A stretch of 64,000 nt of DNA from NCBI GenBank assembly GCA_000437355.1, contig FR899764.1, positions 24,884-88,883 on the forward strand. The letters are read 5' to 3'. The notes beneath the pieces were generated by a model, which searched no databases, was not told the origin of the DNA, and saw only the letters and a list, made by a program, of their open reading frames with translations. This document shows, one piece after another, positions 5,503 through 63,626 of the stretch (position 1 is the stretch's first letter; each line of letters starts with the position of its first letter). Made by a program: the position numbers and the translations under genes. Source of the stretch: Firmicutes bacterium CAG:460 (lineage in GTDB: Bacteria; Bacillota_I; Bacilli_A; RF39; UBA660).

Positions 5503-6385
5503 TTTTCTTACCTCCAGTCTTCTTTAAGAAAGCTTCTTCTAGAGTTAATTCTTGCATTTTTACTTCATAAACATCAATATTTTCTTTAACTAACTTTTTA
5601 ACTATTTTAGCAATACTTTCTTTATCTCCATTAAAACTAAACTTAGTTTTACTTACTTCATATATACCTTCAATATCTAGTTTTTCAGTAGAACTTACCG
5701 TAAAGACGTATTTATTATCATTATTTTTAAATTCTTTTACTTCACTTGTTTCAATAATTGTACCATTATCTATTATGAGAACTTTATTACAGAAGCTTTC
5801 TAGTTCTGCTAAGTTATGACTGGATATTAAAATACCCATTCCTTCTTTAGCTAGTTTTTTTAAAAGATTTCTTAAATCTTTAATTCCTTCAGGGTCTAAA
5901 CCATTAGTTGGTTCATCTAATATTAAGATGTTTGGTTTATTAATTAGAGCTCTGGCAATTCCTAGTCTTTGACGCATTCCTAAAGAATATTTGCTAACTT
6001 TATCATGAATTCTAGTTTCTAAATCAACAAGTTTAACAATATCTTTAATAGCTTCATCACTAATATTTTTGTACATATTTGCAGTTAGTTTTAAGTTATC
6101 CCAACCACTTAAGTACATGTAAGTATCAGGATTTTCAACAATTGCTCCGACTTTTTCAATGGCTTTAACAAAGTCCTTTTTAATATCATAACCATTGATA
6201 TTAACACTTCCTTTATCAATTCCTTGTAATCCTAATATTAGTTTTATGGTAGTTGTTTTACCACTTCCATTCGGACCAATAAAAGCTAATATATCACCTT
6301 CATCAAGTTCAAATGAAACATTTTTTAATATTTGTTTTTTTCCAAAACTTTTGCATAAGTCTTGACATTCCAATAATTTTTTCAT
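5495..6385 (-). CDS. ABC transporter ATP-binding protein
   Basis: Walker A GPNGSGKTT, signature YSLGMRQR, Walker B ILILDEP. The start is moved to the ATG at 6385, which has an AAAGGAAAG SD. The track ORF extends to 6406. Confidence 0.9.
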   Translation of the reverse strand: MKKLLECQDLCKSFGKKQILKNVSFELDEGDILAFIGPNGSGKTTTIKLILGLQGIDKGSVNINGYDIKKDFVKAIEKVGAIVENPDTYMYLSGWDNLKLTANMYKNISDEAIKDIVKLVDLETRIHDKVSKYSLGMRQRLGIARALINKPNILILDEPTNGLDPEGIKDLRNLLKKLAKEGMGILISSHNLAELESFCNKVLIIDNGTIIETSEVKEFKNNDNKYVFTVSSTEKLDIEGIYEVSKTKFSFNGDKESIAKIVKKLVKENIDVYEVKMQELTLEEAFLKKTGGKKNV

Positions 6386-6418
6386 GTTAATCTTTCCTTT
6401 CATCAATTATTCTACCAT

Positions 6419-6467
6419 AAAAAAAAAGATATGTATATATACTTTACGTATACTTTACATATCTTTT
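6419..6467 (-). terminator. Intrinsic terminator after the xerC-like gene
   Basis: 12-bp arms aaaagatatgta (6424-6435) and tacatatctttt (6456-6467). A run of at least 9 T follows on the minus strand. Confidence 0.6.
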
Positions 6468-7329
6468 ATCTTTTAAAACTTTTTAAATAAACATCTTTTA
6501 ATCTATCACTTGAAACATGAGTGTAAATTCCAGTTGTACTTAGATTGGCATGCCCTAAAAGTTCTTTCACAGTTTTAATATCTGCTCCATTATTAAGTAA
6601 ATGTGTAGCAAAAGTATGTCTTAAAGTGTGCGGTGTAACATGAGTTTTAATTGATATATGTTTCATAATATCTTTTACAATTAATTCAACTTCACTGATT
6701 GTTAATTTATCACCATTTTTATTTTCAAATAAATATTTATTACACTTTCTTTTACTTAAGTAACTCTTCATATAATTACTTGCATAATCTCCATAATATA
6801 CAATACGTTCCTTACTTCCTTTACCCATTATTCTTATCGTATTATTGGTAAAATCTATATCTTTTATTTTAATATTTATTATTTCACTAACACGACAACC
6901 AGTTGAATAAAACATTTCTATTAGTAATCTTCTTTCTAATCCTTCAATAGTTGATGTATCAATTGAATTAAGTAATTCTTCCATTTCATTATAATTTAAA
7001 TAGTTAGGTAATTTCTTTTCTAACTTAGGATTTTTAACATTTTTAAATATATTACTACTTACTTTGCCTTCATCAAGTAAATAATTATAAAATGTTCTTA
7101 ATGTACTTATTCTTCTAGAAATAGTACTATTTTTTAACTTACAACTATCTAAATACTTTAAATAATCTCTTACATCTTCATTATTTATATTTAAATAATT
7201 CTTCTTACTTTTTTCTAAAAATCTAAAAAAATCAGTTAAATCTAACTGATAACTTTTTATAGTAAGTTCTGAATAATTAAGTTCATTTTTTAAGAAACCA
7301 AAGAATTTATCTACTTGTACCTCTTTCAT
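6466..7329 (-). CDS. xerC: Tyrosine recombinase XerC/XerD family
   Basis: N-terminal SAM-like core-binding domain plus catalytic residues (CRVSE..., HTLRHTFATHLL, LGHANLSTTGIYTH). Start chosen at ATG 7329 with a GGGGGA SD. Confidence 0.85.
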   Translation of the reverse strand: MKEVQVDKFFGFLKNELNYSELTIKSYQLDLTDFFRFLEKSKKNYLNINNEDVRDYLKYLDSCKLKNSTISRRISTLRTFYNYLLDEGKVSSNIFKNVKNPKLEKKLPNYLNYNEMEELLNSIDTSTIEGLERRLLIEMFYSTGCRVSEIINIKIKDIDFTNNTIRIMGKGSKERIVYYGDYASNYMKSYLSKRKCNKYLFENKNGDKLTISEVELIVKDIMKHISIKTHVTPHTLRHTFATHLLNNGADIKTVKELLGHANLSTTGIYTHVSSDRLKDVYLKSFKR

Positions 7330-7678
7330 TATTTCTATCCCCCACAACTTTTTTTAGTTCATCAAACTTTATTCTTAAATCTTCAAGTTCTCTTTCGGCT
7401 TGAATTTTATCTTGTCTTAACTCCATTACTTCTTGATGAAATGTATTTGGATTTTTCATCTTTTCATCGCAAAAGTTAATATCATGAACTAATTCAACTA
7501 TTCTTATATTCATTTTATTTAGTTCATCAGCAATTAACATAGTAATATCAGCATCACTTAGAGGGTTCATTAAAGCAACTTCTTCATCTGTTAAGCCATC
7601 TGTTTCCTCTTTGTGTAACATTCTATATTCTTCTACTAGTATCCCTTGATATTCTTTCTTTTTTGCTTCAAAATCCAT
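7307..7678 (-). CDS. Hypothetical acidic coiled-coil protein
   Basis: Track ORF trimmed to the internal ATG (MDFEAKKKEY...), which overlaps the upstream stop (TAATG). No recognisable family. Confidence 0.5.
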   Translation of the reverse strand: MDFEAKKKEYQGILVEEYRMLHKEETDGLTDEEVALMNPLSDADITMLIADELNKMNIRIVELVHDINFCDEKMKNPNTFHQEVMELRQDKIQAERELEDLRIKFDELKKVVGDRNNERGTSR

Positions 7679-8328
7679 TACTCCTCCGCCTTTTCTATAC
7701 GTATTAATCCATTTAATACTTTTTCTAAATTGCCATCTTGACTTTCTTTTAAATTTACATATGTTACTTTGGCATCCCATTTTTCTGTTATTTCATTAGT
7801 TGTAGATATTTCTCTACTTTTAGTAATGTAATATCTTCCTAGTCCTTCAGTTATATCAAAACCACTTATTTCATTGTTTTTACCATCTTTAATTGTGACA
7901 TATTTTAAACCTTCAATTTCTTTTACTTCATTTCCATCTGGGTCATATACATTTAGTAAAAGTTCTGGAGTTTTACTAGCAGTGGAGTATGTTAAACTAT
8001 TATCACTTATTTCTAAGTATAAATTATATTTTAACTTAGATACTTCTGTACCATTTTCTCTTTTTAAAAATACACTTGCATATGTTTCACCGGTTAAGTT
8101 ATCCATACCTTCAGTAAAGTTTTCAGTAGTTGGATTTATATATATCGGCGAACCAATATCAAACATAATGTAATTTAATGTTGCTGCTTCAACATCAACT
8201 TTTGGAGAAACTCTCGATACTTTTATATAGGTAAAATGAGCATAAGTTGCTCCGATTACCAGCACAGTTAGCGCTATAACGTAAATAATTAATATAATAT
8301 TTGTAGCTTTTTTGCTCACTTTTATCAC
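7678..8328 (-). CDS. Secreted/anchored protein, short paralog of the 8352-9944 product (TasA/camelysin-like signal region)
   Basis: N-terminal TM ends in IGATYAHFTY. Residues ~40-210 align with the N-terminal domain of the neighbouring protein (ENF..G..N.TG, YNLYL.IS.N..TY, PE.LL, ISG.DIT, REI.TT). The start may instead be the GTG at 8319 with an AAGGTGA SD. Confidence 0.6.
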   Translation of the reverse strand: MIKVSKKATNIILIIYVIALTVLVIGATYAHFTYIKVSRVSPKVDVEAATLNYIMFDIGSPIYINPTTENFTEGMDNLTGETYASVFLKRENGTEVSKLKYNLYLEISDNSLTYSTASKTPELLLNVYDPDGNEVKEIEGLKYVTIKDGKNNEISGFDITEGLGRYYITKSREISTTNEITEKWDAKVTYVNLKESQDGNLEKVLNGLIRIEKAEE

Positions 8329-8351
8329 CTTTCTTATTATTTATATAATTT

Positions 8352-9944
8352 TTAATTTATACGAATTGGATTAGATTGAGTTCCATCACCACTAGCATAG
8401 GTTACTGAAGATGCAAGACTGAAGGTCGGGCGCACGCCACGAGCGGATTCGCCCACAAGGCCGCTATTCATGTTACCATTTTCGGACACAGAATACGCAA
8501 TGTCCGAACCGTTCGCATTACGGAAAATAGTCCATTCAATAAATCCCATGTGCATCCAGTTTTGTGACCATATTGTTGTACCATTCACACTTCCATAATA
8601 CTTGATTAATGTAGTTGTCCATGCTTCTGGAACTGCGCCAAATCCATAATCACTTACATACATTAAACCTACTTTTGCACTATATGTTGTTGCATTATCT
8701 GTTGTATTTGTTGTTACTGGATTTACTACCTCATTTTGATATGCTGTTTCTGGCACTACAAGTTGTATATTTTCAGATGTATTTCCGCCGACTTTCCACG
8801 TCGTTGTTGCTATCTTATTTACCCATGTACTTCCTATATTGTTTATGAAATTCGTATTTAAGTTTGTTTTGTTCAATAAAGAATTACTCCATGTATTATT
8901 GTAGTTTGATGTATCTGCTTTATAATTCCAATAATATCTATTTATTGTTGTCAAACTTCCTTTGTAGTAAGATGAATCTGGTGTTCCTGAACCATAATAA
9001 TCTCCATCTGTTCCTAGTAATGCACTGGTTGCATAATCATATTTGATTAGTTTTACTAATTGTTTTCCACTTACTCCATGATAATTATCTCCAAATACTC
9101 CGATTATTCTATAGAGGTTATCTGTTGGGCATGGCGTTTCTGTTGAGCCAAAACACACAAAATTATTTACCATTTCACTTGCTCCGGCATATCTATATGA
9201 ATTATCACCTGCTCCATTGGTTAAATTTGAGTTATGATAGTATAATGAATTTTCCCCTTGAGTTCCTGTGTATTGTGATATCACGTATTCTGCTAATGTT
9301 GGTAATTTATATTCTTCTTTTTGGATTAACATCTTGCCACTAAAAGTATTGCCGGCATTTTTTGACTGGTCTGCATTATAGTTAATAAATGTTACTGTTA
9401 TGTTCCAATTTTCTGTTTTGGTACTGGTTGTAGTTATTTCTCTATTACTAAAAAGTTCGATTAATCCTGTTTTATTTGTGATATCATAACCTGATATAGA
9501 GTTTCCTTTGCCATCGGTTACTGTTTTATAAGTAAGTGATGTAATGTTAGTTACAGGATTTGTTCCATCAGTTATGGTAAGTAATATTTCTGGAGTATTT
9601 TCATTTTGAGTATATGTAAAAGTATTTTCAGAAATATTTAAATACAAATTATAATGGTCTGTTGCTGTGTTTGTTTTATTATTGGCAGTAAGAATAGCTT
9701 TAGCAAAAGTACTTCCAGTTTGATTACCTACTCCACTTGCAAAGTTTTCTTGATTTAAAGAAAAACTTATTGGGTCTCCGGTTTCAAAAGAAAAAACATC
9801 GACAGTGTAAGTTTTAACAGTTGCAGAAGTTTGAGCAGAAGTATCTCCTTGAGCTGCAAAATAAGCAAATGATGCCCCGATTACTAAAATAGCAAGGGTA
9901 ACTATGGCAATAATACTTAATATTATTTGTTTTTTATTTTGCAT
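8352..9944 (-). CDS. Secreted two-domain protein with a TasA/camelysin-like (SipW-type) signal, a shared N-domain and a C-terminal WxxRxx...GVRP-type domain
   Basis: Good SD (GAAGGTGAG). The signal LVIGASFAYFAAQ resembles the G-x-x-AYF-[ST]-D class. The C-terminus EWTIFRNANG...ARGVRPTFSL resembles the YWLRS...GVRPAL motif of a widespread Firmicute domain of unknown function. Confidence 0.65.
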   Translation of the reverse strand: MQNKKQIILSIIAIVTLAILVIGASFAYFAAQGDTSAQTSATVKTYTVDVFSFETGDPISFSLNQENFASGVGNQTGSTFAKAILTANNKTNTATDHYNLYLNISENTFTYTQNENTPEILLTITDGTNPVTNITSLTYKTVTDGKGNSISGYDITNKTGLIELFSNREITTTSTKTENWNITVTFINYNADQSKNAGNTFSGKMLIQKEEYKLPTLAEYVISQYTGTQGENSLYYHNSNLTNGAGDNSYRYAGASEMVNNFVCFGSTETPCPTDNLYRIIGVFGDNYHGVSGKQLVKLIKYDYATSALLGTDGDYYGSGTPDSSYYKGSLTTINRYYWNYKADTSNYNNTWSNSLLNKTNLNTNFINNIGSTWVNKIATTTWKVGGNTSENIQLVVPETAYQNEVVNPVTTNTTDNATTYSAKVGLMYVSDYGFGAVPEAWTTTLIKYYGSVNGTTIWSQNWMHMGFIEWTIFRNANGSDIAYSVSENGNMNSGLVGESARGVRPTFSLASSVTYASGDGTQSNPIRIN

Positions 9945-36806: not shown

Positions 36807-36819
36807 TTTAAATTCCATT

Positions 36820-36833
36820 TGGTGGAGAATGTG
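36820..36833. repeat. Left att core (lysis-proximal junction)
   Basis: TGGTGGAGAATGTG. With the adjacent phage-side bases it forms the perfect dyad TGGTGGA-GAATGTG-TCCACCA. Confidence 0.85.
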
Positions 36834-36877
36834 TCCACCAAATAAGCCCTTTATTTCCTTATTATAAGGCTTTTTTA

Positions 36878-36904
36878 TTTTTTTACCGCCATTTTTTACC
36901 GCCA
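36878..36904. repeat. Tandem arm-type repeats TTTTTACCGCC(A) x2, left arm
   Basis: tttttttaccgcca / ttttttaccgcca. The same motif recurs at 63438-63462 in the same orientation. Confidence 0.6.
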
Positions 36905-36980
36905 TTTCATTTATTGAAGGAAAATATAAAAAAAATGAATGCTTTTAACATATTTTTTTCAAAGAATTAAAACACAAAAA

Positions 36981-37010: not shown

Positions 37011-37859
37011 TTAATATTTAAATCCATACTTAACTAGCATTTTTAATGTGATAGGTCCTACACAACCGTCTTGTTCAAGTCCTGTTCTTTTTTGAAATTC
37101 TTTTATAGATTTTTGAATATTAGGTCCATAATAATTTCCTAAAGCTGCTTTTGATGTATAAGCTGGGAATGTTTTATACATGAAGTTAGCTATTTTTTCA
37201 ACATTACTACCCCTATCTCCCAATTTGATATATCCTCTAGCTCCTAGGAAGTTATCTGACGCATTAGGTTTTGTTGGTTCTGGTTTAACATCTTTTTTTT
37301 CTAATTTTGCTTTTACTTCATTTCTAAACCAATCCATATTTTTGTTGAATTTCTTTAACCAGTGATCGCAGTCTGCGTGGTTTGAACCATAGCCTTTAAG
37401 ATAAGATTCATGATGACTAACAATATTATCTACAGATATGTTATATTCCTTGCACAAATAAGCACAAAAATCTATAGCAACTCCAAAAGCATCATTGAAA
37501 TACTTTTCATCTTTCAATGCATCCTCACATATTTCAAATTGTATATGTGTGTAGTTGTAACTTCCTTTTTTACCACTTGCACACCCCCACGGCATATAAT
37601 CGAATGGTAGTGTTTGATAACATCTAACTATTCCATTTTTGTCTTTACCAATGAAAGCATTAACACAAGCGTTAACACCGCTTCTATTCCAATCATTGTT
37701 ATATTGATTTTTTCCTAAAATACCATCATCAGGTTGAACATATCTTTTTAGATATGGATTGTTAGCACCAGTTGAATGTACCACAATTCCTTTGGGCACC
37801 ATTTTTGATGCTTTCTTATAACATGAATTATTAACTAATATACATTTTTTTATTTCCAT
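37011..37859 (-). CDS. Endolysin: N-acetylmuramoyl-L-alanine amidase domain plus C-terminal peptidoglycan-binding domain
   Basis: N-terminal amidase-like region (GIVVHSTGANNP). The C-terminus KEFQKRTGLEQDGCVGPITLKML is the classic PG-binding repeat. Position is next to the holin. Confidence 0.8.
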   Translation of the reverse strand: MEIKKCILVNNSCYKKASKMVPKGIVVHSTGANNPYLKRYVQPDDGILGKNQYNNDWNRSGVNACVNAFIGKDKNGIVRCYQTLPFDYMPWGCASGKKGSYNYTHIQFEICEDALKDEKYFNDAFGVAIDFCAYLCKEYNISVDNIVSHHESYLKGYGSNHADCDHWLKKFNKNMDWFRNEVKAKLEKKDVKPEPTKPNASDNFLGARGYIKLGDRGSNVEKIANFMYKTFPAYTSKAALGNYYGPNIQKSIKEFQKRTGLEQDGCVGPITLKMLVKYGFKY

Positions 37860-37864
37860 GTTTC

Positions 37865-38116
37865 CTATTCTCCTTTCAATAAGTCATTTAAATTTTTTCC
37901 TAGGTCATATGCACCGCCAGTAAGTAAACCAGCTACTACAATAGAACCATTAAAGTCTTTAGTCATAATAAAGTTAATTACTGCTACAATAATTCCAATT
38001 AATAAATTTTGTACTGGAATTAATTTATTATTGAACTTTGGATGTTTTTTAGCAATAACACCACAAATGTAAGTAACTAATATTGTAACTAAAGTCATAA
38101 TTGTTTGAATATCCAT
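37865..38116 (-). CDS. Holin (phi LC3-like small two/three-TM holin)
   Basis: 83 aa with TM segments and a charged C-terminus, immediately upstream of the endolysin. Confidence 0.6.
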   Translation of the reverse strand: MDIQTIMTLVTILVTYICGVIAKKHPKFNNKLIPVQNLLIGIIVAVINFIMTKDFNGSIVVAGLLTGGAYDLGKNLNDLLKGE

Positions 38117-38131
38117 TTCTTCTCCTCCTTC

Positions 38132-38455
38132 CTATATTTTTTCTTTTTTCAGCAATTGTTCCCAATGCTCATGAATATAAGAATTGCCACCCAATATAGT
38201 GTATTTATCATATAATTCATGTGCGTTAAGTCTTTGAATTTGACTTTTTGGAACATTGTGCTCTACGTCTGAGATAAAATTTGTCAAATCCGTTTTAATT
38301 GATTGTAGTTCCAAATCATCAATTCTTTTTACTAACGGATTTAATGTTTTATCTATTTGTTTGCTAAACATACTAAAAATATATTTAATTGAACTTATAA
38401 AACCAACTAAAAAAGCAAGTGCAGTTGCTACTTGCCCTAACGTTATATTTTCCAT
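38132..38455 (-). CDS. Lysis-cassette membrane protein (N-terminal TM; holin-accessory candidate)
   Basis: 107 aa with a single N-terminal TM. Position is between the RBP-like genes and the holin. Confidence 0.4.
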   Translation of the reverse strand: MENITLGQVATALAFLVGFISSIKYIFSMFSKQIDKTLNPLVKRIDDLELQSIKTDLTNFISDVEHNVPKSQIQRLNAHELYDKYTILGGNSYIHEHWEQLLKKEKI

Positions 38456-38468
38456 TTCTATCCTTTCT

Positions 38469-38909
38469 TTAATTTTTTGTATAATTCAAAATTACATAAA
38501 ACCACCAATCGGCTCCCCAACCACCATTCGAATACATTTTTATTACACCTTCGCTCTTTTCTAACCAAATATCGCATTTATCAGTCAAACTTCCATCATA
38601 GCCAACCATAGGCATAGTAACTACTCTCCCAGCCTCGGAAATGACAAAAGCATTTTCAATCCATATTTGATCTACTGAATCAATTCCGTAATTCGTAGAT
38701 TGAACTGTATTAACTGACAAGCCCACTATTACTACAACTTTTCTATATAAATCTTTGTTCATCCATTTGCCAATTTTTGTTTCAGTAGTAGAATAATTAG
38801 TTATATTATTAAATTCGTTTTCTACATTAGTTTGCATTAAATTTAAGTTATCTGCATTAATAGGAATTGCTCCCGTTTCTCCTTTGTTTTTAAAATTAAG
38901 TTTTTCCAT
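38469..38909 (-). CDS. Tail fibre/receptor-binding-like protein, paralog 3
   Basis: N-terminus FKNKGETGAIPINADNLN is shared with the two upstream genes. The C-terminus is unique. Confidence 0.5.
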   Translation of the reverse strand: MEKLNFKNKGETGAIPINADNLNLMQTNVENEFNNITNYSTTETKIGKWMNKDLYRKVVVIVGLSVNTVQSTNYGIDSVDQIWIENAFVISEAGRVVTMPMVGYDGSLTDKCDIWLEKSEGVIKMYSNGGWGADWWFYVILNYTKN

Positions 38910-38930: not shown

Positions 38931-39398
38931 TTATGCTATTCTTTTCCAAATTGCAAAAACTTGATATGGTTGTAAGGTATTATGTGCTTGACCAGTAGCA
39001 CTAATATTCATATTTGTTTGACCATCTTTGACACCACCTGTTCCAACAACAGATGAGGAAATAACAACATCAGTTCCACCTGAAATATTACCATAATTTA
39101 CAGGGATTTTTTTCGGTAATTCATAAACTGTTAACGTATGTGCTTTTTCTCCACCCGTTTTGCCAATTGTCTTAAAATCATTATCAGAACTATCAATACC
39201 AACAATTGCCTTACCAATACCAGTTCTTTCCCAAGTAAAGCCCAAATAATTACTATGGTCGTCATTATCATAGAAGATTTCGACTTTTCCGACAGGACAC
39301 ATCAAATTTAAAACTTCTTGAAAATTATAATTTAAGTTTTCGGCACTTAGTGGAATAGCCCCACTTTCACCTTTATTTTTAAATATTCTTAAAGCCAT
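38931..39398 (-). CDS. Tail fibre/receptor-binding-like protein, paralog 2, with a phage tail-collar-like C-terminus
   Basis: N-terminus FKNKGESGAIPLSAENLN. The C-terminus GGEKAHTLTVYELP...GQAHNTLQPYQVF matches the tail-collar pattern (G..HTLT..E.P...H.N.QPY). Confidence 0.6.
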   Translation of the reverse strand: MALRIFKNKGESGAIPLSAENLNYNFQEVLNLMCPVGKVEIFYDNDDHSNYLGFTWERTGIGKAIVGIDSSDNDFKTIGKTGGEKAHTLTVYELPKKIPVNYGNISGGTDVVISSSVVGTGGVKDGQTNMNISATGQAHNTLQPYQVFAIWKRIA

Positions 39399-39419
39399 AT
39401 AATCGGCTTTTCATTACTC

Positions 39420-39863
39420 TTATTTCCACTTACCTATTGCAAATATTGAAACTACGAATTTGGCTGAATCATGTCTGCCTATTCTACCCATTCCGATATT
39501 CTGAATACTGGAAGTGGTTATGACAGGAAAATCCCAGTCGACTCGCCAACCAGCACCTTGTTTAAACTTTAAATCAATTAGTACTTCTGGTGGCTCTTGA
39601 AAAACTTGAGGAAAACTAATCGGGGTTGCATAATTTCCAACATATACTCCACTATTGCCCCAGTTTTCTGTAACAGCTAAAGTAATAGTTACATTTTGAT
39701 ATGTAATCATAGTGCCATCGTTGAATTTAATCCATCTTCCTGTTTCATTACTGCCACTCTCACTTATGTTTCTATTGTCTAAATCGGTAAAGTTGAAATT
39801 TATATTTTCTGCAGTCAAAGGTATTGCACCAGCTTCGCCTTTATTTGAAAAAGTTTTTAGCAT
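39420..39863 (-). CDS. Tail fibre/receptor-binding-like protein, paralog 1
   Basis: Start moved to ATG 39863 (MLKTFSNKGEAGAIPLTAENIN) behind GAGGTG. The track ORF begins at an upstream TTG inside the hairpin. Confidence 0.5.
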   Translation of the reverse strand: MLKTFSNKGEAGAIPLTAENINFNFTDLDNRNISESGSNETGRWIKFNDGTMITYQNVTITLAVTENWGNSGVYVGNYATPISFPQVFQEPPEVLIDLKFKQGAGWRVDWDFPVITTSSIQNIGMGRIGRHDSAKFVVSIFAIGKWK

Positions 39864-39878
39864 AATGCACCTCGAACA

Positions 39879-39908
39879 GAAAAAGAGCAATGAATTAAGC
39901 CATTGCCC
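39879..39908 (-). terminator. Terminator/attenuator hairpin between the leader ORF and the first RBP-like gene
   Basis: Minus strand reads GGGCAAUG-gcuuaauu-CAUUGCUC followed by UUUUUC. The leader-ORF stop codon (39895-39897) lies in the loop. Confidence 0.5.
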
Positions 39909-40071
39909 CCTTTCTTCTTAGAGATGCGATTAAAACTAAATAACCGCACCTCCCTTCGCAAGGTATAAAGTACCTTTGTTTGTTTGTTTGTTTGTTTGTT
40001 TGTAAGATTATCGCATTCTTACGTATACTTGTCAATACTTTTGAACAAACATTTTTTAGTTTTTTTCTCAT
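39895..40071 (-). CDS. 58-aa leader-like ORF containing the (CAAA)7 repeat
   Basis: ATG 40071 lies 9 nt after AGGAGG. Translation is MRKKLKNVCSKVLTSIRKNAIILQTNKQTNKQRYFIPCEGRCGYLVLIASLRRKGAMA. Coding status is uncertain. Confidence 0.3.
   Translation of the reverse strand: MRKKLKNVCSKVLTSIRKNAIILQTNKQTNKQRYFIPCEGRCGYLVLIASLRRKGAMA
39975..40002. repeat. Tetranucleotide simple sequence repeat (TTTG)7, which is (CAAA)7 on the gene strand
   Basis: Seven perfect tandem units read directly from the sequence. Confidence 0.95.
40007..40035 (-). promoter_or_regulatory. Near-consensus sigma-A-type promoter firing into the SSR
   Basis: On the minus strand: TTGACA (40030-40035), a 17-nt spacer, then GATAAT (40007-40012). 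The predicted start falls at the first repeat units. Confidence 0.45.
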
Positions 40072-40087
40072 ATTTTTTATCCTCCTT

Positions 40088-42727
40088 CTATGAGATATTT
40101 TCACTCGTATAACCATATATGTATAATTGTGCCAACACACATCCTGTATCGGCATAACTATCATCTGAATTGTAGGAACTTTGTAATTTTATTGAATAAG
40201 TTCCTGTATTTTGTATTAAATTAGTTATATCAATTGAAGTCGCTTCTTTTATGCCTGATGATGCCCCAGTAAAGCCGCTACTGCCAAAACAATTTGAAAT
40301 TTCCGAATAAGATCCAGAAATAGTGAATTTTTGCATAGTCCAATCAATATCTCTATAAAAATTACCATTATTTATATAAGCTTTTATATTTTTACTATAT
40401 CCAGTAACTTTATTTCCACTTGAGTCATAGGAATTTTGAGTCGGTATATGTCTTAAATAAATAAAGGCTTTTTTGGGTTTGAAATTACTAGGTATCATAA
40501 ATTCTAAAACCATTGCATTCGCCACTGTTTTAAAATTACTATTTTGATCTACATAAGTTTCAAAGCCAAGCGGCACAAATCCCGATGAGCCAGCAAATTG
40601 TTGTCCCCAAAGATTACCATTTACTATCATTACTGACATCATGCCATCTCCGCCAACAACTTTTCCACCAGCTGGAAGATACACATTACCACTTAATGAT
40701 GCATTTTTTGCTTCAATAGAACCATCAGTAAGTATTTTAAAATATTCATTTGCTGTTACTAAGCCTTCAAATTTAATTTTATTAGCTTTAATTGCTGCCT
40801 CTTCACTAGATAAATTAATTGCTGCTATTACTTCATTTTCATCAACCTTTTTTGATACTTCTAAATTTATTCTATCTTCACTTTGTGTAATACTGTTATG
40901 CATTTCTACTTTTGTAGCAAATGTATCCGTATAATCACTTTTAATAACATATTTACAAGAATATGTTAAGTTTGCATCGTAAAATGATTGTAACCAAATT
41001 TTGTTGTACCCTTCACTTAGAGAAATTATCAAATCCTCGTATTCTTCGATTATTTCATTTTCCAGTGCAAATTTTGTTCCATCAGCATCAATTCCCACAC
41101 GCCTAATTATTTTGGTCTTACCTTCACAAACAATGAACTCATCATAGACATTTGTATCTAAATAATTTAAATAATTGATCGGCAAGTGTATCATACTTTG
41201 CTCATTACTTGAATTTTGAATAATCAAATAACTATCAAGCAGATACAAATCATTTGCAGGATATAAGTCATCTGCAGGATAAAGTAAACTCATTTGTCCA
41301 CTTATTGAAAAATTAAGCAAATCACCTTCAAAGGCATTTGTTAGTTCTAAATATCCTGTTGCAGTGATATTTCTAGTTAAATCGGTCATTGTATTAACCT
41401 TCATTATTAACTCTGTATATCCTTCTATTAAATTTGTATTTATTTTTCCCGAATTGATAAAATCTGCATTAAAATTACCATCTATTGTCCAAGCATTTTT
41501 AAAATCACCTTCATAACCATTATCAGAAAATGCAATACCTCCCAAGCCAAGACGCAAAACATACTTTGCCTCTTCTTTAGGAAGTACATCCAAAATTAAG
41601 ATTTCATTATCATCTATATAGACATGGCCCAATTTATTTAAAGTATTAATAATATCTTTTTGTTTTTTTAAAGTATCATTATTTTTTAATAACTGGTCAT
41701 TTATTTGACTAACACTTTCTTTAAATGAAGATATTTTTTGAATGATATCCTTTTTATAGTTTCCAAAAACAAGACTTTCAGTTTTTTTTAATTTATGATC
41801 ATAAACATATTCTTGAACCTCCGTCTGTAAATTAACAAGAGGATGTTTTACCATAATCTTATCATTAATATCATAGTTTTCAGAAATATTTGTAGTTATT
41901 TCATATGAAACTTTAGGATATTTGTTATTATTTAAATATTCTGTTGCTTTTTCTCTCAATTCCGATATCAAATCTTCTTGAGAAATTTCAATTTCATTTC
42001 CATCTTCATCATAATTCTCTAAATCCGAAGTAAATTCTACAGTTTTTGAATATGGAATCTTATACTTTATATCTGATTCAATATATTTTTCAGGTAATTT
42101 TAACCCATCTGGTCCAACAGGATACAATTCAGTAACTACATCACTCCAATCTTCAACAATCGATAAATCTTCTAAATTCTTTTGATAAACTAGCATTTCT
42201 CCAACATTTTTTCCTAAATTATCTGACAGAATTATGTTCCAATTATCAGCATCAAAACATCCACCCCATCTCTCTTCAATTATTACCCAAGCTTCATAAA
42301 GAGATTTCAATTGAAAATAGGCAGTTGCTAATTTAGTAATGTTAGAAGAATAAGAAAAAGGACTTTTCTTATTAGTCCTATTATTTATGTATTCTAAAGC
42401 ATTAAGAGCATTTTTATTAATTGGTCGCACATCATCTAACATATAATTTTGTGAATCAAACATAACATGGTATGCTGTAAATCGAATTGTTTTACTATTT
42501 TTAGTTGGATCTCCAATTCTAAATGCTTGAGGATTAAGTTTTGATTTTGACTTAATAACACACAAATCATCTTTTACAATATATTTTGCATATTTTATTG
42601 ATACCTCAACCTCTATGTACCAACCATTTAAGGATTTTTTCTTATATTCTTTTATTTCTACTGGCTTTATTGCAATCTTTCCATTATTAGCAAACGATTT
42701 TACATCACCGTCATATATTTTTATCAT
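40088..42727 (-). CDS. Tail-associated (Tal-like) minor structural protein / prophage tail endopeptidase family
   Basis: ~880 aa directly after Dit and TMP. The N-terminal ~350 aa look like the siphovirus Tal/minor structural N-terminal region. Start at ATG 42727 overlaps the Dit stop. Confidence 0.65.
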   Translation of the reverse strand: MIKIYDGDVKSFANNGKIAIKPVEIKEYKKKSLNGWYIEVEVSIKYAKYIVKDDLCVIKSKSKLNPQAFRIGDPTKNSKTIRFTAYHVMFDSQNYMLDDVRPINKNALNALEYINNRTNKKSPFSYSSNITKLATAYFQLKSLYEAWVIIEERWGGCFDADNWNIILSDNLGKNVGEMLVYQKNLEDLSIVEDWSDVVTELYPVGPDGLKLPEKYIESDIKYKIPYSKTVEFTSDLENYDEDGNEIEISQEDLISELREKATEYLNNNKYPKVSYEITTNISENYDINDKIMVKHPLVNLQTEVQEYVYDHKLKKTESLVFGNYKKDIIQKISSFKESVSQINDQLLKNNDTLKKQKDIINTLNKLGHVYIDDNEILILDVLPKEEAKYVLRLGLGGIAFSDNGYEGDFKNAWTIDGNFNADFINSGKINTNLIEGYTELIMKVNTMTDLTRNITATGYLELTNAFEGDLLNFSISGQMSLLYPADDLYPANDLYLLDSYLIIQNSSNEQSMIHLPINYLNYLDTNVYDEFIVCEGKTKIIRRVGIDADGTKFALENEIIEEYEDLIISLSEGYNKIWLQSFYDANLTYSCKYVIKSDYTDTFATKVEMHNSITQSEDRINLEVSKKVDENEVIAAINLSSEEAAIKANKIKFEGLVTANEYFKILTDGSIEAKNASLSGNVYLPAGGKVVGGDGMMSVMIVNGNLWGQQFAGSSGFVPLGFETYVDQNSNFKTVANAMVLEFMIPSNFKPKKAFIYLRHIPTQNSYDSSGNKVTGYSKNIKAYINNGNFYRDIDWTMQKFTISGSYSEISNCFGSSGFTGASSGIKEATSIDITNLIQNTGTYSIKLQSSYNSDDSYADTGCVLAQLYIYGYTSENIS

Positions 42728-43386
42728 TAAATCCACCTGTCCTTTTTCAGAACTTGAATTTGACAATCACCACTATTTGTTACAATTTGATTTTCCCCAG
42801 GATCAAGTTTTGGAAATTCAAATCCTATTTCTAAGTTTTCATTTCTAAAATATCCATCATAATAGGCATTACAATCTAAACAATCAACAATTACATATGA
42901 CTCATCAGTTGGAAAACTATACTTAAATCGTACGTTATTAATAGTTAAATCAACTGTATCAGAATCACCTTTTATTATTTTGATTAATGGTTGTGAAAAA
43001 ACATTACCTTCATTAGTAATTGTATTGCTACACTCTATATAACTATCAGCCTTCTTATACCAAAATGGGCTTCTTTTAAAACTAACATCAATAGTTTTTA
43101 TTGTTGCAGATCTTTGAGGTTTAATTTCATTAAAAAAATACGCAGTACTAACTTTATCTTTATACTCTAAAGTCCCTTCACCATCTAGCCATTTATAAAT
43201 ACTTGACAATTTAGAAGAATCCATAACATAAAGTTTTAAACTACTTTCTATATTTGCATAGCTGCTTACATAAAAACTACCATTAGAATTTTCTTCATAG
43301 CTTAACGCAGCTTTTGGTATTAAATTATCTTCTTCTTCACAAATTACTTTCATTTCATCTGAAGAAATATTATTAAATTTAAACAT
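42727..43386 (-). CDS. Distal tail protein (Dit; siphovirus tail component)
   Basis: 219 aa immediately downstream of the tape measure gene. N-terminus MFKFNNISSDEM is typical of phage tail family proteins. Confidence 0.65.
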   Translation of the reverse strand: MFKFNNISSDEMKVICEEEDNLIPKAALSYEENSNGSFYVSSYANIESSLKLYVMDSSKLSSIYKWLDGEGTLEYKDKVSTAYFFNEIKPQRSATIKTIDVSFKRSPFWYKKADSYIECSNTITNEGNVFSQPLIKIIKGDSDTVDLTINNVRFKYSFPTDESYVIVDCLDCNAYYDGYFRNENLEIGFEFPKLDPGENQIVTNSGDCQIQVLKKDRWI

Positions 43387-59851: not shown

Positions 59852-60544
59852 TTAATCAGCTCCTTTACTATGTAACCAGTCAAAGTTTAAAACTTCTTTT
59901 TGCTCATCGGTTAACTCAATTTCTGAATTATTTAATGAACTTATAACACCTGATTTAAAATTTTCAACCTTTGTTTTCCCCATGTTTTTCCAATTAGTTA
60001 AAATTCCATCAATATAACCAATTGAAACTTTTTCATTTCTCTTTGCTATTTCAATAGCTGCTTTAATTACATCAAGTTCAAATGTACTTTCCCACCTTTC
60101 GATTATTTCAAATTCATTTTGATTTATTGTTCTTTTTATTTCTTTTTCTAATAAAAGAAATAAATCATTATCATTTACATTTTCATTATCATTTACATTT
60201 TCATTTTCATTAAACTTGTTTTGTTTGTTTTTGCTTGTTTTGCTTGATTGATTGTTTTTGCAAGCATTTTTATTACCTTTAGGAGCACCGCCCCTTTGCC
60301 CAGCCATACTGCGTTTAAGAGTAATTTGATTGTATTTTTCATTGTCAACAAGCAATTGGTTGTTTATGAAATCAAAAGCCATTTCTATATCATTTTCTAA
60401 AACAACCTCATTTCCGAGTTGTTTTTCAAATAATGCTCTAAAAAGTCTTCCGAGTTGTTCATTGTTCAACTTTTTAATAATGTTATAATGAGAAAAATAA
60501 AATATTATACTGTCTTTTTCTTTCACATTTTTGTTCCCTTTCAT
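59852..60544 (-). CDS. Replication initiation/organiser protein with a C-terminal DnaD-like domain
   Basis: The C-terminus FEIIERWESTFELDVIKAAIEIAKRNEKVSIGYIDGILTNWKNMG matches the DnaD/DnaB_2 repeat. A low-complexity linker lies in the middle. Confidence 0.65.
   Translation of the reverse strand: MKGNKNVKEKDSIIFYFSHYNIIKKLNNEQLGRLFRALFEKQLGNEVVLENDIEMAFDFINNQLLVDNEKYNQITLKRSMAGQRGGAPKGNKNACKNNQSSKTSKNKQNKFNENENVNDNENVNDNDLFLLLEKEIKRTINQNEFEIIERWESTFELDVIKAAIEIAKRNEKVSIGYIDGILTNWKNMGKTKVENFKSGVISSLNNSEIELTDEQKEVLNFDWLHSKGAD
60165..60210. repeat. 18-bp tandem repeat (2.5 copies) inside the replication gene linker
   Basis: tcattatcatttacattt at 60165-60182 and 60183-60200, plus a partial copy. 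Encodes NENVND repeats. Confidence 0.8.
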
Positions 60545-62127: not shown

Positions 62128-62143
62128 AAAATGAAAAATCACA

Positions 62144-62169
62144 AAAGTCCGACAAGACTAAAACAAAAT
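62144..62169. repeat. Right copy of the 26-bp perfect inverted repeat
   Basis: aaagtccgacaagactaaaacaaaat. It lies ~90 nt upstream of the integrase ATG, and a TATAAT sits at 62179-62184. Confidence 0.95.
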
Positions 62170-62259
62170 ATCAAGCGATATAATGTTTATGGATCTTTCA
62201 TATTCATTATATCACAAATGCATAAAAAAACAAAGAAAAATATACAAGGAGTGATAAAA

Positions 62260-63426
62260 ATGAATACAAAAATATATGAAAGAACTAGATGGGAAAATAT
62301 ATATAGACATAAAACAAATAAAAATTACGTAATTAGATTCAATGGTAAAGTTGAAACTAGTGTATCTAAGGATGAACGTGGCAATAAAATATTTGATTCT
62401 GAAACAGCAAGAAGAATTAGAGATAACCAAATAATTATTAATCAAAAGAAAATCCAAATTAAGCATAAAGAATTAATTGATGATCATTGGGATAGATATA
62501 TTGAGGAATGCAAGTATATGAAAAAACAAGCATATAACACTATAATAAGAAAAACAAAAGCATATAACAAATATATCAGAAGTAAAATATTAATGCCAGT
62601 CAATAAAATATCAAAAGATTATTGGGCAAAATATATTGATAAATTAGAATGTTCAGATAAACAAAAAAATCAATTAATAAAAACATTGAAAGCATTTTTA
62701 AATTGGTGTGTAGACGAAAATATCATTGTTCAAAATGAAATGAAAAAAGTAAAAAATTATAAAGTTGTAAAAGCTGAAATGAAGTACTGGTCACCTTTAG
62801 AAATTAAAACCTTCTTCACTAAAATTGATAGCTTAATAGAAACAGCCAATGACTTAACCTTTAAAAGACAATCTCTTATGATTAAAACTCTTGTCATGAT
62901 TAATTTTTGTTTAGGAGATAGAATTGGTGAAACAAGAGCTTTAACTTTTAATGATATAAATGAAAATAATATGACAATAAGAATAGCACACTCAATAAAT
63001 TATGATATAAAGTCAAAAGACTATTTATCTAATACAAAAAATTATCAATCACAACGTGATGTTCTAATAACTAATAAATTGATAACTCAAATTAAATTAT
63101 ACAAAGATTTTTTGTTAAATGAAATGAAATATAAGGTTACAGATGACTCACTAATATTCTATAATTATGAGTATGATAAACCACTATCAGATACAACAAT
63201 AAGAAATCAGTTTAAAAGATTTTGTCAATTATGTGGGGTCACTAAAATAAGATTATACGATTTAAGACATACCTACGTTGCCACGATGATGGCTGAAGGG
63301 AAAGAATTATATCAAATAAGTTCACGACTTGGACATAGCAGTTATGCAACTACTGTCAATAAATATGGTCATCTTTCAACTGAAATAAAAAAAGAAATAG
63401 CAAATACTACTGATAAATATCTATAA
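62260..63426 (+). CDS. int: Phage integrase (tyrosine recombinase)
   Basis: Start at ATG 62260 after AAGGAG. C-terminal catalytic motifs (GDRIGETRAL, LYDLRHTYVATMM, LGHSSYATTVNKYGH). Adjacent to the tRNA junction. Confidence 0.9.
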   Translation: MNTKIYERTRWENIYRHKTNKNYVIRFNGKVETSVSKDERGNKIFDSETARRIRDNQIIINQKKIQIKHKELIDDHWDRYIEECKYMKKQAYNTIIRKTKAYNKYIRSKILMPVNKISKDYWAKYIDKLECSDKQKNQLIKTLKAFLNWCVDENIIVQNEMKKVKNYKVVKAEMKYWSPLEIKTFFTKIDSLIETANDLTFKRQSLMIKTLVMINFCLGDRIGETRALTFNDINENNMTIRIAHSINYDIKSKDYLSNTKNYQSQRDVLITNKLITQIKLYKDFLLNEMKYKVTDDSLIFYNYEYDKPLSDTTIRNQFKRFCQLCGVTKIRLYDLRHTYVATMMAEGKELYQISSRLGHSSYATTVNKYGHLSTEIKKEIANTTDKYL

Positions 63427-63549: not shown

Positions 63550-63563
63550 TGGTGGAGAATGTG
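63550..63563. repeat. Right att core (int/tRNA-proximal junction)
   Basis: TGGTGGAGAATGTG, identical to 36820-36833. Confidence 0.85.
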
Positions 63564-63626
63564 GGACTCGAACCCGCGACCCCCACGGTGCAAGCGTGGT
63601 GCTCTAGCCAACTGAGCTAATTCCCC
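63550..63626 (-). tRNA. tRNA-Ala (anticodon UGC)
   Basis: Hand-folded cloverleaf: acceptor GGGGAAU/AUUCUCC with the G3:U70 Ala identity pair, anticodon loop CUUGCAC, T-loop UUCGAGU, encoded CCA. The 3' 14 nt are the att core. Confidence 0.9.

Follow-up and report, generated by a model that had tools for sequence, protein, structure and literature searches.

Frame shifts at repeat tracts give graded or on/off expression in Haemophilus influenzae, where the (CAAT)n tract of lic1 was reportedly described by Weiser, Love and Moxon in 1989. In ermC-type leaders and at ATGA stop-start junctions, the position of the ribosome on a leader ORF sets how hairpins fold and how the next start is accessed or re-initiated. 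The tetranucleotide-repeat contingency loci of H. influenzae have been surveyed (PMC2651432). In phages, repeat-driven phase variation of a Campylobacter phage receptor-binding protein was reported by Sorensen et al. 2021 (Cell Rep 35:109214), according to the accessible text of a 2025 phase-variation review (PMC11868660); the accessible text of PMC10877375 also cites this work. In a 2025 preprint, Gomez, Barrick and Waters (bioRxiv 10.1101/2025.10.21.683753) described contingency loci made of homopolymers in several phages, T2 and T4 among them; the study scanned homopolymers of at least 6 bp, found most of them in ORFs and under-represented in tail fibre genes, and mentions neither tetranucleotide repeats nor promoters. 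Published cases of repeat-driven phase variation in phage receptor-binding proteins exist, for intragenic homopolymers of Campylobacter phages, and the review and the preprint put out of date the view of a first-pass annotation of the present DNA, which took the mechanism to be not established for phage host-range genes. The terms translational coupling, leader, upstream ORF and untranslated are absent from the 2025 review, and no description of a repeat switch of phage receptor-binding proteins borne on an upstream ORF (uORF) was found in the literature searched.

The locus described here lies in a 64 kb stretch of DNA (64,000 nt, called the window throughout; all coordinates are positions in it), where a repeat-bearing cassette separates a large tail gene from three small tail-tip genes. 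The flanking features are:

40088..42766, minus strand, gene of a large tail-tip/baseplate protein (Tal-like, 892 aa, TTG start); PF06605 Prophage_tail, E 9e-13, and PHROG tail-protein families
39857..39873, minus strand, start region of tail-tip gene 1, with GAGGTG at 39873-39868, ATG at 39863-39861 and an out-of-frame TAA at 39859-39857
39420..39863, minus strand, tail-tip gene 1 (147 aa); phrog_2712 tail fiber C-terminus, E 1e-13, and F2-pyocin side fiber, E 0.0055
38931..39398, minus strand, tail-tip gene 2 (155 aa); PF21939 Gp10_C, E 8e-16, and PHROG tail-protein C-termini
38469..38909, minus strand, tail-tip gene 3 (146 aa); N-terminal motif common to genes 1 and 2
37011..38455, minus strand, 107-aa ORF, holin (83 aa) and amidase endolysin (282 aa), in the same direction with 5-15 nt gaps

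The element is carried by a prophage, as had been supposed. Dit-like and tape-measure genes precede the Tal-like gene, which is the upstream neighbour of the leader and ends with a TAG stop at 40090-40088, and a strong terminator (37008-36981) follows the endolysin gene. The gene order after the cassette matches in related loci. A blastn search of 39400-41000 against the phages deposited in GenBank gave no match, and neither a reverse transcriptase nor an invertase is among the annotated ORFs of the tail and lysis module. A single GTDB genome, an uncultured Eubacteriales MAG, carries the cassette.

The protein encoded by tail-tip gene 1 has a disordered, conserved N-terminus (MLKTFSNKGEAGAIPL..AEN.N) followed by a predicted beta-sandwich tip, which was modelled by AlphaFold2 with a pLDDT of 82. 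Its best Foldseek matches were the C-terminus (foot) of R1/R2 pyocin fibres and H-type lectins (E 1.5e-4). The N-terminal motif is common to all three tail-tip proteins. Tail-tip gene 3 had no family match in PHROG and Pfam-type profile searches, and its C-terminus resembles the product of the gene behind the (ATAC)n cassette of a related locus, L059. The C-termini of phrog_2712 and phrog_5717 are matched by the downstream genes. A PDB sequence search with the three proteins returned one weak match, and the fold search was more informative. The PHROG, Gp10_C, F2-pyocin and Foldseek matches point to tail-fibre-tip-like proteins with a lectin- or pyocin-fibre-like fold, for which receptor binding is a putative function; this agrees with the receptor-binding-like label first given to these genes. 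The start of the first gene, an ATG at 39863 behind GAGGTG, had also been placed correctly.

The elements of the leader between the Tal-like gene and tail-tip gene 1 are:

40081..40087, minus strand, Shine-Dalgarno sequence AAGGAGG of the leader uORF, nine nt before the ATG at 40071
39895..40071, minus strand, leader uORF read from the sequence, 58 aa in the 7-unit state, with its stop TAA (39897-39895) in the P3 loop
40007..40035, minus strand, promoter-like block TTGACA-17 nt-(TG)CGATAAT, 11/12 to consensus with an upstream TG
39975..40002, minus strand, tetranucleotide repeat (CAAA)7, which is (TTTG)7 on the plus strand (Tandem Repeats Finder)
39962..39974, minus strand, candidate hairpin P1 (GGTAC-TTTA-TACC), directly 3' of the repeat; one compensatory change in L004-type loci (CGTGC..GTGCG)
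39920..39953, minus strand, predicted hairpin P2 (centroid fold; 12 pairs in the consensus fold), whose loop holds a TAG at 39938-39936
39878..39915, minus strand, predicted hairpin P3, terminator-like in the window's lineage, with core stem GCAATG/CATTGC and loop GCTTAATT

Tandem Repeats Finder called the tract with period 4, 7.2 copies and 100% matches (39975-40003). There is no second such tract in the 64 kb window; three units (CAAACAAACAAA) are expected 0.04 times from dinucleotide shuffles and are found only inside (CAAA)7. The first-pass annotation had counted seven perfect CAAA units at 39975-40002, as we do, and had taken them for a slipped-strand hot spot, which was upheld by comparison of public assemblies. 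Across 38 public cassette loci the tract has 5, 6, 7, 8, 9, 10, 11, 12, 14 or 15 units. Fifteen pairs of loci have 0-2 mismatches across ~800 nt of flanking sequence, and 10 of them differ in copy number. For example, 8, 9, 10 and 11 units were seen with zero flank mismatches, further pairs with near-identical flanks have 15 versus 8 and 14 versus 7 units, and locus L003 has 6 units between flanks identical to those of the window with its 7. These comparisons show that the repeat is hypermutable, mutating far faster than its surroundings, and is a hot spot of slipped-strand mutation. Assembly error was rejected as the source of the length differences, since tracts of 20-60 nt fall within read length and differences of up to 7 units occur between flank-identical contigs from different samples. 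Three contigs (L002, L005 and L017) break off within the tract, which is suggestive of length heterogeneity within a population. The tracts are nearly always pure, with few interruptions (L013 and a few peptide clusters). The tract has these marks of a contingency locus: perfect repetition over at least about five tetranucleotide units, fast variation in unit number and a placement at which length alters frame.

This placement is within the leader uORF, which spans both the promoter-like block and the repeat, the latter encoding the peptide QTNKQTNKQ. A change in tract length shifts the frame of the uORF and leaves the spacing between the -35 and -10 elements unaffected. That a strong Shine-Dalgarno sequence and the ATG at 40071 open a 58-aa ORF was already recognized, and gene callers have annotated the uORF in public assemblies, at 58 aa in L001 and 43 aa in the 6-unit L003. 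By our recomputation, the uORF with 7 units (also 4, 10 or 13) stops in the P3 loop. With 6 units (also 3, 9 or 12) it meets the early TAG in the P2 loop, and with 8 units (also 5, 11 or 14) it is read through to the TAA at 39859-39857, which overlaps the tail-tip start (ATGCTAA). The stops first predicted for 6, 7 and 8 units therefore stand, and only the distance from the early TAG to the hairpin had to be corrected, from ~45 nt to 28 nt (to the GGGGG foot). All three predicted frames are present in nature. In the 31 complete loci the uORF ends in the P3 loop 12 times, runs into the tail-tip start 11 times and meets an early stop 8 times, and 56 peptide clusters, with inferred unit counts of 4-14, together represent all three frames. 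Frequencies of 12, 11 and 8 are about equal, which is also the neutral expectation. Since the 7-unit frame stops 34 nt upstream of the tail-tip start, the state found in the window is not the coupled one.

The uORF start is conserved. A purine-rich, Shine-Dalgarno-like element followed by ATG or GTG, opening the sole open frame through the conserved block, is present in nearly every related locus and is kept across at least four different upstream contexts (including L033, L034, L042 and L043). The exceptions are L038-type loci, in which an ATG overlapping the stop of the upstream gene has its Shine-Dalgarno-like element 13 nt upstream, and two sister-lineage uORFs with poor Shine-Dalgarno sites. 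The three end points hold in 21 of 21 distinct (CAAA)n leader variants, among them one with a 7-nt deletion (L027) and two with re-arranged leaders (L034 and L042). A functional leader peptide was rejected as an explanation: conservation 3' of the repeat is at the DNA level and extends to all three frames, and the encoded peptides are entirely different from one lineage to the next.

The same design recurs with other repeats. Its conserved core consists of the Shine-Dalgarno sequence and start codon of the uORF, a stop-free repeat whose unit is not a triplet, two hairpins and tail-tip gene 1. In eight leader lineages, several with a different leader sequence and four with a different repeat unit, one frame runs without a stop from the repeat as far as the tail-tip start and ends +1 to +14 nt from it, so that the coupling geometry proposed in the first-pass annotation, a stop just after the downstream start, is a recurrent feature. 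In hairpin-bearing lineages another frame has its stop within the loop of the first hairpin, and the remaining one stops within the loop of the last hairpin or just beyond that hairpin. The (TTAC)n lineage, with 5, 6, 8, 10, 13 or 14 units and stops at -73, -36 and +1 (an ATGA overlap), has the repeat, uORF and hairpins, and has neither the TTGACA/GATAAT block nor a U-run. Other sister cassettes carry (ATAC)n with 14 and 20 units, the pentanucleotide (AAGCA)10, (AAAC)8 or (AC)15, and L059 has two cassettes, one ahead of each of two tail-tip genes. Every repeat unit is stop-free in the sense frames. The gene upstream of the cassette is of at least four kinds and the tail-tip genes beside it are of many kinds, as at a recombination junction. 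In L047, a relative without the repeat, the same Shine-Dalgarno sequence and ATG start the tail-tip gene directly, which suggests that the cassette is an optional regulatory insert. Binding of Hfq, Rho or a small-RNA seed to the repeat as a motif was rejected, given the unrelated units of the sister lineages.

We compared this geometry with dinucleotide shuffles in the eight lineages. A frame open to the start codon with a stop 0-14 nt after it had P = 0.05-0.17 in each lineage. Multiplied across the eight, these values give 10^-9, which overstates the significance because the criterion was chosen post hoc and some modules are common to several lineages. For the pattern of three end points, P was 0.005-0.015 in the three lineages tested. 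The lineages are mosaic, with common hairpin modules, and so are not fully independent. Since loops of hairpins in AT-rich DNA easily hold TAA or TAG, two of the three end points could each arise readily when taken singly.

The leader is predicted to be strongly structured (z = -5.2 in the window and z = -4.6 in L034). For P1, the single compensatory change lends weak support to a real hairpin, and in some predicted folds this segment pairs instead with the Shine-Dalgarno sequence of tail-tip gene 1. P2 has a counterpart, a first hairpin whose loop contains a stop, in 7 of 8 leader lineages. In the consensus fold, Col31:48 has changed once from G-C to A-U by compensation and once to G-U on a single side, and there are several changes from G-U to G-C. 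The 5' arm of P2, GGGAGGTGCGGTT, contains a copy of the real ribosome-binding sequence GAGGTGC. Sequestration of the tail-tip 1 Shine-Dalgarno sequence is weakly predicted and inconsistent between variants; a conserved anti-Shine-Dalgarno helix appears in many MFE folds, with varying partners and many G-U pairs, and we did not rely on it. RNAfold extends P3 to 16 pairs (39915-39900 with 39893-39878), leaving a CTTAAT loop that contains the current uORF stop TAA. The core stem is followed on the minus strand by a U-rich run, TCTTTTTCT (39886-39878), so that the window does contain the terminator-like hairpin, U-run and leader stop in the loop that had been noted there, as a stem of 10-16 pairs followed by UCUUUUUCU. 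The stem is kept in L033 with compensatory changes (GCAATG/CATTGC to GTAGTG/CACTAC). The U-run is degraded in L009, L010, L012, L018 and L023, and L034, L042 and the (TTAC)n leaders have no good U-run and keep the rest of the design; terminator features are not conserved among relatives that otherwise retain the cassette. An Rfam gathering-score scan of the whole window found tRNA alone, and at a permissive E-value the best Rfam 15 match to the leader was the SpF25 sRNA, at 24 bits against a threshold of 48. With nothing near threshold, the leader corresponds to no known riboswitch or small RNA.

The promoter-like block at 40035-40007 precedes the repeat, as had been stated, and is a predicted site. 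Its 11/12 score is the best in the 8 kb scanned, jointly with one other site, in a region where such sites are not enriched (40 found versus 51 expected). We sought a second copy in the window with up to three mismatches and found none, so that the block is not a phage regulatory site repeated within it. The hexamers and 17-nt spacing are identical in every (CAAA)n locus carrying the block, with few spacer substitutions. The block is degenerate or absent in the TTAC, ATAC, AAGCA and L066 lineages, which keep the repeat-uORF design, and the -10 elements of L066 and of both L059 cassettes are degenerate. A transcript from it would begin at about the first repeat unit. The block lies downstream of the uORF start, so its transcripts would be without the uORF start codon and insensitive to frame. 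Since several sister lineages have neither promoter nor U-run, attenuation by promoter and terminator is not the conserved part. Of the original reading as attenuation or coupling, the coupling geometry recurs; the promoter and terminator fall outside the conserved core, as seen in (TTAC)n, L034, L042 and L009-type loci, and terminator attenuation would be a feature of the window's lineage at most.

We consider the cassette to be, with a probability of roughly 0.6, a uORF contingency switch that sets translational coupling to the tail-tip genes. On the late tail-gene mRNA, ribosomes would start at the strong Shine-Dalgarno sequence and ATG directly after the Tal gene and translate a short leader ORF through a hypermutable, stop-free repeat with a unit length not divisible by three. 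Slipped-strand mutation at DNA replication would add or remove units and so move the leader among three frames. The first (6 units here) would end in the P2 loop, ~75 nt before the tail-tip gene; the second (7 units, the state of the window) in the P3 loop, beside the tail-tip ribosome-binding site; and the third (8 units, ATGCTAA) 1-14 nt after the tail-tip start codon. We infer that the leader is translated and that the place of its stop alters tail-tip expression. The third frame would couple translation of tail-tip gene 1 to that of the leader by termination-reinitiation and leader unfolding, the early-stop frame would leave the leader folded and give the lowest output, and the middle frame would be intermediate. 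The outcome would be a heritable, reversible three-level setting for three lectin-like tail-tip proteins. In the window's lineage, where P3 resembles an intrinsic terminator, an early stop may also cut transcription into the tail-tip and lysis genes. Translation of tail-tip gene 1 could be independent of the leader, given its own well-spaced GAGGTG.

An explanation that we regard as unlikely is that the tract is hypermutable but functionless, lying in a conserved linker at the mosaic junction between tail and tail-tip-lysis genes, with the uORF and its stops as by-products of AT-rich hairpins. The position of the cassette at a recombination junction, with at least four upstream genes and many tail-tip genes, would be in keeping with this, as would the existence of relatives without the cassette and the near-equal frequencies of the three frames. 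However, shared neutral ancestry is hard to reconcile with independent lineages that have different units at the same position, and a functionless tract would not be expected to remain almost always pure and stop-free in sense in all its units, to keep its uORF start in nearly every context, or to retain the start-overlapping frame in eight lineages (P = 0.05-0.17 each).

The two remaining explanations give the tract a function other than coupling. In the one suggested by the first-pass annotation, which appears slightly less probable again, P3 is an intrinsic terminator, frames that run into or through it (7 or 8 units) prevent termination, and the 6-unit state switches off the tail-tip and lysis genes together in a ribosome-dependent transcription attenuation. 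The hairpin and U-run of the window, the P3 stem kept by compensation in L033, the small gaps between downstream genes and a terminator scan in which the sole other candidate between P3 and the end of the endolysin gene was a weak internal match would all suit such a mechanism. Yet the scan listed the P3 stem for the plus strand only and not as a minus-strand terminator, the U-run is degraded in the five L009-type variants named above and absent from the L034, L042 and (TTAC)n leaders, and loss of holin and endolysin would trap the progeny, although 8 of 31 loci are in the early-stop state. Least probable of all, in our estimate, is an action of the repeat by length and not by frame. Repeats in 5' untranslated regions can tune expression, as do the AGAT repeats of Moraxella catarrhalis uspA2, and with this precedent (CAAA)n could form the unstructured 5' leader of a transcript from the internal promoter (40035-40007), where the number of units would tune promoter escape, RNA stability or translation; alternatively, the region from promoter to P3 could encode a small RNA of ~125 nt whose 5' tail varies. 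The invariant hexamers and spacing of (CAAA)n loci carrying the block, the start of the tract where transcription would begin, and P3 with its U-run, which would end a short RNA in the window's lineage, are consistent with this. Against it stand the (TTAC)n lineage, with repeat, uORF and hairpins but no promoter block, the degenerate -10 elements of L066 and both L059 cassettes, and the differing units, which oppose a sequence-specific RNA or protein binding site. The leader matches no known RNA family in Rfam, and a length model leaves the conserved uORF start and frame-specific end points unexplained.

Extending the uORF switch beyond this locus is more tentative, and we put it at somewhat less than even odds that it forms a modular phase switch in temperate phages of human-gut Firmicutes. 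Its unit sequence would be nearly free (CAAA, TTAC, ATAC, AAGCA or AC), and it would give three heritable, reversible tail-tip levels through a stop that moves between two hairpin loops and the gene start. Some phages would have one switch per tail-tip gene (two in L059), and progeny with combinatorially different receptor-binding tips would amount to host-range bet-hedging with unchanged protein sequence and no dedicated enzyme. Such a switch would be relevant to temperate phages facing variable host surfaces in the human gut. If true, it would represent a class of phase variation in which the repeat lies outside both the regulated gene and its promoter. Leader ORFs of 40-80 aa are already in public data as unrelated hypothetical proteins of many lengths, the locus is already present in public read sets, and the 230-nt unit is movable onto a reporter.

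The locus can be compared with several known systems. As in the polyG system of Campylobacter phages, for which we draw on the accessible text of PMC11868660, a phage-encoded simple repeat would switch receptor-binding proteins and produce mixed progeny. There, the repeat is a homopolymer inside the ORF of the receptor-binding protein of lytic phages and frameshifts the protein itself; here, no homopolymer within a receptor-binding protein coding sequence is involved, and a tetranucleotide (a di- or pentanucleotide in relatives) lies in a uORF, with three tip genes downstream whose protein sequence is untouched. The T2/T4 homopolymer loci are alike in using slippage-prone phage repeats as a bet-hedging device. 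With lic1-type loci of H. influenzae the cassette shares a perfect tetranucleotide tract that slips, a frame picked by unit number modulo 3 and the bet-hedging of surface or recognition functions. The lic1-type repeat is in the 5' coding region of the regulated gene itself, on a bacterial chromosome, whereas here it is in a separate upstream ORF of a temperate phage in a gut Firmicute, and what changes is the position of the stop relative to the next start. An upstream ORF that ends within a few nt of the next start, the geometry of translational coupling, is found in one of the three frames in all eight lineages. In leader-ORF attenuation and coupling of the ermC type, ribosome position is physiological, responding to antibiotic or amino-acid supply, whereas in the cassette repeat length would fix it as a heritable, genetic setting. 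Adsorption proteins are likewise diversified within a population by diversity-generating retroelements and by invertible tail-fibre segments of the Gin/Cin type (see PMC3521204 and PMC9881135), but these need a reverse transcriptase or an invertase and change the protein sequence, whereas here expression alone would change. If the switch works as proposed, it would be a third route to adsorption-protein diversity beside retroelements and invertases, one that needs only repeat slippage in a uORF, with translational coupling as the readout.

All of the elements listed in the first-pass annotation were found within a 224-nt gap on the minus (gene) strand, between the Tal-like tail gene (40088-42766), a large tail-tip/baseplate gene, and the first of three small fibre-tip-like genes. 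The leader stops were placed by frame reconstruction.

Nine nt 5' of ATG 40071, minus strand: Shine-Dalgarno site AAGGAGG
ATG 40071, end 39895, minus strand: 58-aa leader ORF
40035-40007, minus strand: promoter-like TTGACA-17 nt-(TG)CGATAAT, score 11 of 12
40002-39975, minus strand: repeat (CAAA)7, perfect units
39920-39953, minus strand: first hairpin (P2), with a stop-bearing loop
39938-39936, minus strand: leader stop TAG
39878-39915, minus strand: last hairpin (P3), with the TAA of the leader ORF in its loop, then TCTTTTTCT
39897-39895, minus strand: leader stop TAA in the hairpin loop
39863, minus strand: ATG of the first tail-tip gene, preceded by GAGGTG
39859-39857, minus strand: leader stop TAA overlapping the start of the next gene (ATGCTAA)

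The (CAAA)7 tract is the sole one of its kind across the 64 kb, and in shuffles even three CAAA units are expected only 0.04 times. The promoter-like site tied with one other as the best in 8 kb, and promoter-like sites overall were not enriched in the 8 kb scanned. Its spacer (40011-40026, minus strand) forms a perfect palindrome, GCATTC-GTAA-GAATGC, in most related public loci (the block in L004-L044), and is broken at two positions in the window (GTATAC-GTAA-GAATGC); the palindrome could be an operator, or an RNA hairpin with a GNRA loop. The 5' arm of P2 (39953-39945, minus strand) carries GAGGTGC, an exact second copy of the tail-tip ribosome-binding sequence (39873-39867, minus strand). 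Because the copies are exact, the 3' arm of P2 could pair with either, and the minimum-free-energy and centroid folds of the leader differ exactly in which copy is paired.

A prophage of ~26.7 kb has its tail and lysis end here, with the gene order tape measure, Dit, Tal, cassette, three small genes, a 107-aa ORF, holin, amidase endolysin and a strong terminator, beyond which lie host rluA and tyrS. Candidate prophage ends are marked by a partial copy of a tRNA 3' end (TGGTGGAGAATGTG) near 36812 (36810-36830), a 15-nt direct repeat (TATTTTTTTACCGCC) at 36876 and 63436, the first copy within a 13-nt tandem duplication (region 36876-36907), and the tRNA-Ala region at the far end:

63550-63626, minus strand: tRNA-Ala(tgc), candidate prophage end
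62131-63426, plus strand: 431-aa ORF adjoining tRNA-Ala, a putative integrase by size and position

A 25-aa N-terminus is common to the three small proteins, whose C-terminal domains differ from one another and have matches to the C-termini of tail-fibre families, to Gp10_C and to an F2-pyocin side fibre. Modelled with AlphaFold2 (pLDDT 82), the first protein is similar to the receptor-binding foot of R-type pyocin fibres and to H-type lectins. Given these fibre-end matches and the modelled fold, "receptor-binding-like" seems a fair label. Between the tail-tip array and holin, the 107-aa ORF (38132-38455, minus strand) is conserved, with PHROG matches of unknown function only; a 74-75-aa ORF replaces it in related loci. 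The early region of the prophage contains imperfect 6- and 18-nt tandem repeats (60165-60258, plus coordinates; TCATTT, ~2.6 copies of the 18-mer), followed by 4.9 copies of a 9-nt repeat, CTTGTTTTG.

The first-pass annotation had proposed that repeat number sets the leader frame, giving repeat-length-dependent attenuation or coupling. Its frame logic proved correct when we rebuilt the region with 0-14 units: unit number modulo 3 selects one of the three leader stops. The window, with 7 units and the stop in the P3 loop, represents the middle state.

Among loci with the exact 147-aa first tail-tip protein, one was identical with 7 units, and one had identical flanks but 6 units; in a third the contig breaks within the tract. 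With the 58-aa leader peptide as query, 56 clusters of 43-80 aa were retrieved, which are the same DNA in all three frames, with inferred unit numbers of 4-14. Scanning public DNA for the promoter-repeat junction identified 36 further loci, from human-gut metagenomes, IMG/VR and one Eubacteriales MAG. Unit counts in (CAAA)n loci were 5, 6, 7, 8, 9, 10, 11, 12, 14 and 15, and tract length differed in 10 of 15 locus pairs with 0-2 mismatches over ~800 nt flanks. Since unit counts differ amid near-identical flanks, the tract is hypermutable, evolving orders of magnitude faster than the DNA around it.

In every (CAAA)n locus bearing the promoter block, the hexamers, the 17-nt spacing, the extended -10 with its upstream bases (GAATGCGATAAT) and the repeat start are identical, with a few substitutions in the remaining spacer. 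Sequence farther upstream derives from at least four different genes. In nearly every locus, the sole frame open through the promoter block retains a Shine-Dalgarno-like site and an ATG or GTG start; in L038-type loci the ATG overlaps the stop of the upstream gene instead. The sequence 3' of the repeat is conserved as nucleic acid, not protein, and forms two or three hairpins (z = -5.2 for the window and -4.6 for L034) with a few compensatory changes. In 21/21 distinct leader variants, including a 7-nt deletion variant and loci L034 and L042 with different sequence or hairpin order, the first stops fall in the first hairpin loop, in the last hairpin loop and just past the tail-tip start codon (P = 0.005-0.015 for each of three lineages in dinucleotide shuffles, for a criterion chosen after seeing the data). 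In L034-L037 (~6205-9400) and L042, the cassette lies behind a DUF859 gene, not Tal, and is followed by arrays of three to six small genes that are tail-tip-like and carry another N-terminal motif (..EPFYPIPYYAVGD..); the L042 leader has its hairpin modules in changed order.

We scanned IMG/VR loci encoding relatives of the first tail-tip protein for repeats. The same layout is built from different repeats in other phages. One lineage (L048-L051, L093 and L062, on the same contigs as L096-L101; cassette ~1328-1485 in L048) has 5, 6, 8, 10, 13 or 14 TTAC units amid near-identical flanks, in the order TAGGAGG-7 nt-ATG, seven codons, repeat, two hairpins, AAGAGGTG and ATG. Its frames stop at -73, -36 and +1 (ATGA overlap), and it has neither the TTGACA/GATAAT (sigma-70-like) block nor a U-run after the second hairpin. 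Elsewhere (ATAC)14 or 20, (AAGCA)10, (AAAC)8 and (AC)15 each lie within a short upstream ORF (uORF), with Shine-Dalgarno sites ranging from TAGGAGG in locus L066 to poor ones ahead of the (AAGCA)n- and (AC)n-bearing uORFs, and each has one frame ending 1-5 nt past the downstream start. The phage contig L059 (the same contig as L095) has two cassettes, (ATAC)14 and (AAGCA)10 (1172-1390 and 2252-2460), each ahead of its own tail-tip-like gene, the second starting with TTG; independent switching of each tip would be allowed. A frame that remains open as far as the start codon and stops within 14 nt of it had P = 0.05-0.17 in shuffles for each of eight lineages; the product, 10^-9, overstates significance because some modules are common to several lineages and the test was picked once the data had been seen. 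One relative, L047 (2440-2520), lacks the repeat cassette, and its tail-tip gene begins immediately at the Shine-Dalgarno site and ATG (AGAAAGGAATGATGAAAATGG) that in other loci open the uORF. The cassette is therefore an optional insert, and L047 suggests that it was inserted behind an ancestral start site.

The common denominator appears to have five parts: a putatively translated uORF, a repeat that is stop-free in sense, with a unit that is not a multiple of three, and three stops, one in a distal hairpin loop, one beside the ribosome-binding site and one overlapping the start codon. Neutral slippage in a mosaic linker would account for the even distribution of loci over the three frames (12, 11 and 8), but is at odds with recurrence with different units, tract purity, the conserved uORF start and the overlap frame. 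The invariant promoter would suit a length-dependent 5' leader or small RNA transcribed from within the cassette, an explanation that fails for lineages lacking the promoter, just as pure terminator attenuation fails for leaders lacking a U-run. Since repeat sequence, promoter and terminator are each dispensable in some lineage, a frame-dependent model is favoured.

In this frame-dependent model, the point at which a ribosome leaves the leader would depend on repeat length: the frame that overlaps the gene start would couple translation of the tail-tip gene to the leader, and the frame with the early stop would leave the leader folded. We infer that ribosomes translate the leader and that the position of its stop alters output. 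The tail-tip gene has a good Shine-Dalgarno site of its own, and its predicted masking is inconsistent. Because P3 in the window's lineage resembles an intrinsic terminator, a further effect on transcription entering the tail-tip and lysis genes is possible there; this cannot be the conserved function.

In the literature searched, we found no description of a tetra-, di- or pentanucleotide repeat in a uORF read out via stop position and coupling, and the terms translational coupling, leader, upstream ORF and untranslated do not occur in a 2025 phase-variation review. Repeat-driven receptor-binding switching itself is already known. The first-pass annotation was wrong to hold that repeat-driven variation of phage host-range genes is not an established mechanism, since a polyG tract inside a receptor-binding protein gene has been shown to drive phase variation in Campylobacter phages (Sorensen 2021, as summarised in PMC11868660), and T2 and T4 are reported to carry homopolymer contingency loci (bioRxiv 10.1101/2025.10.21.683753).
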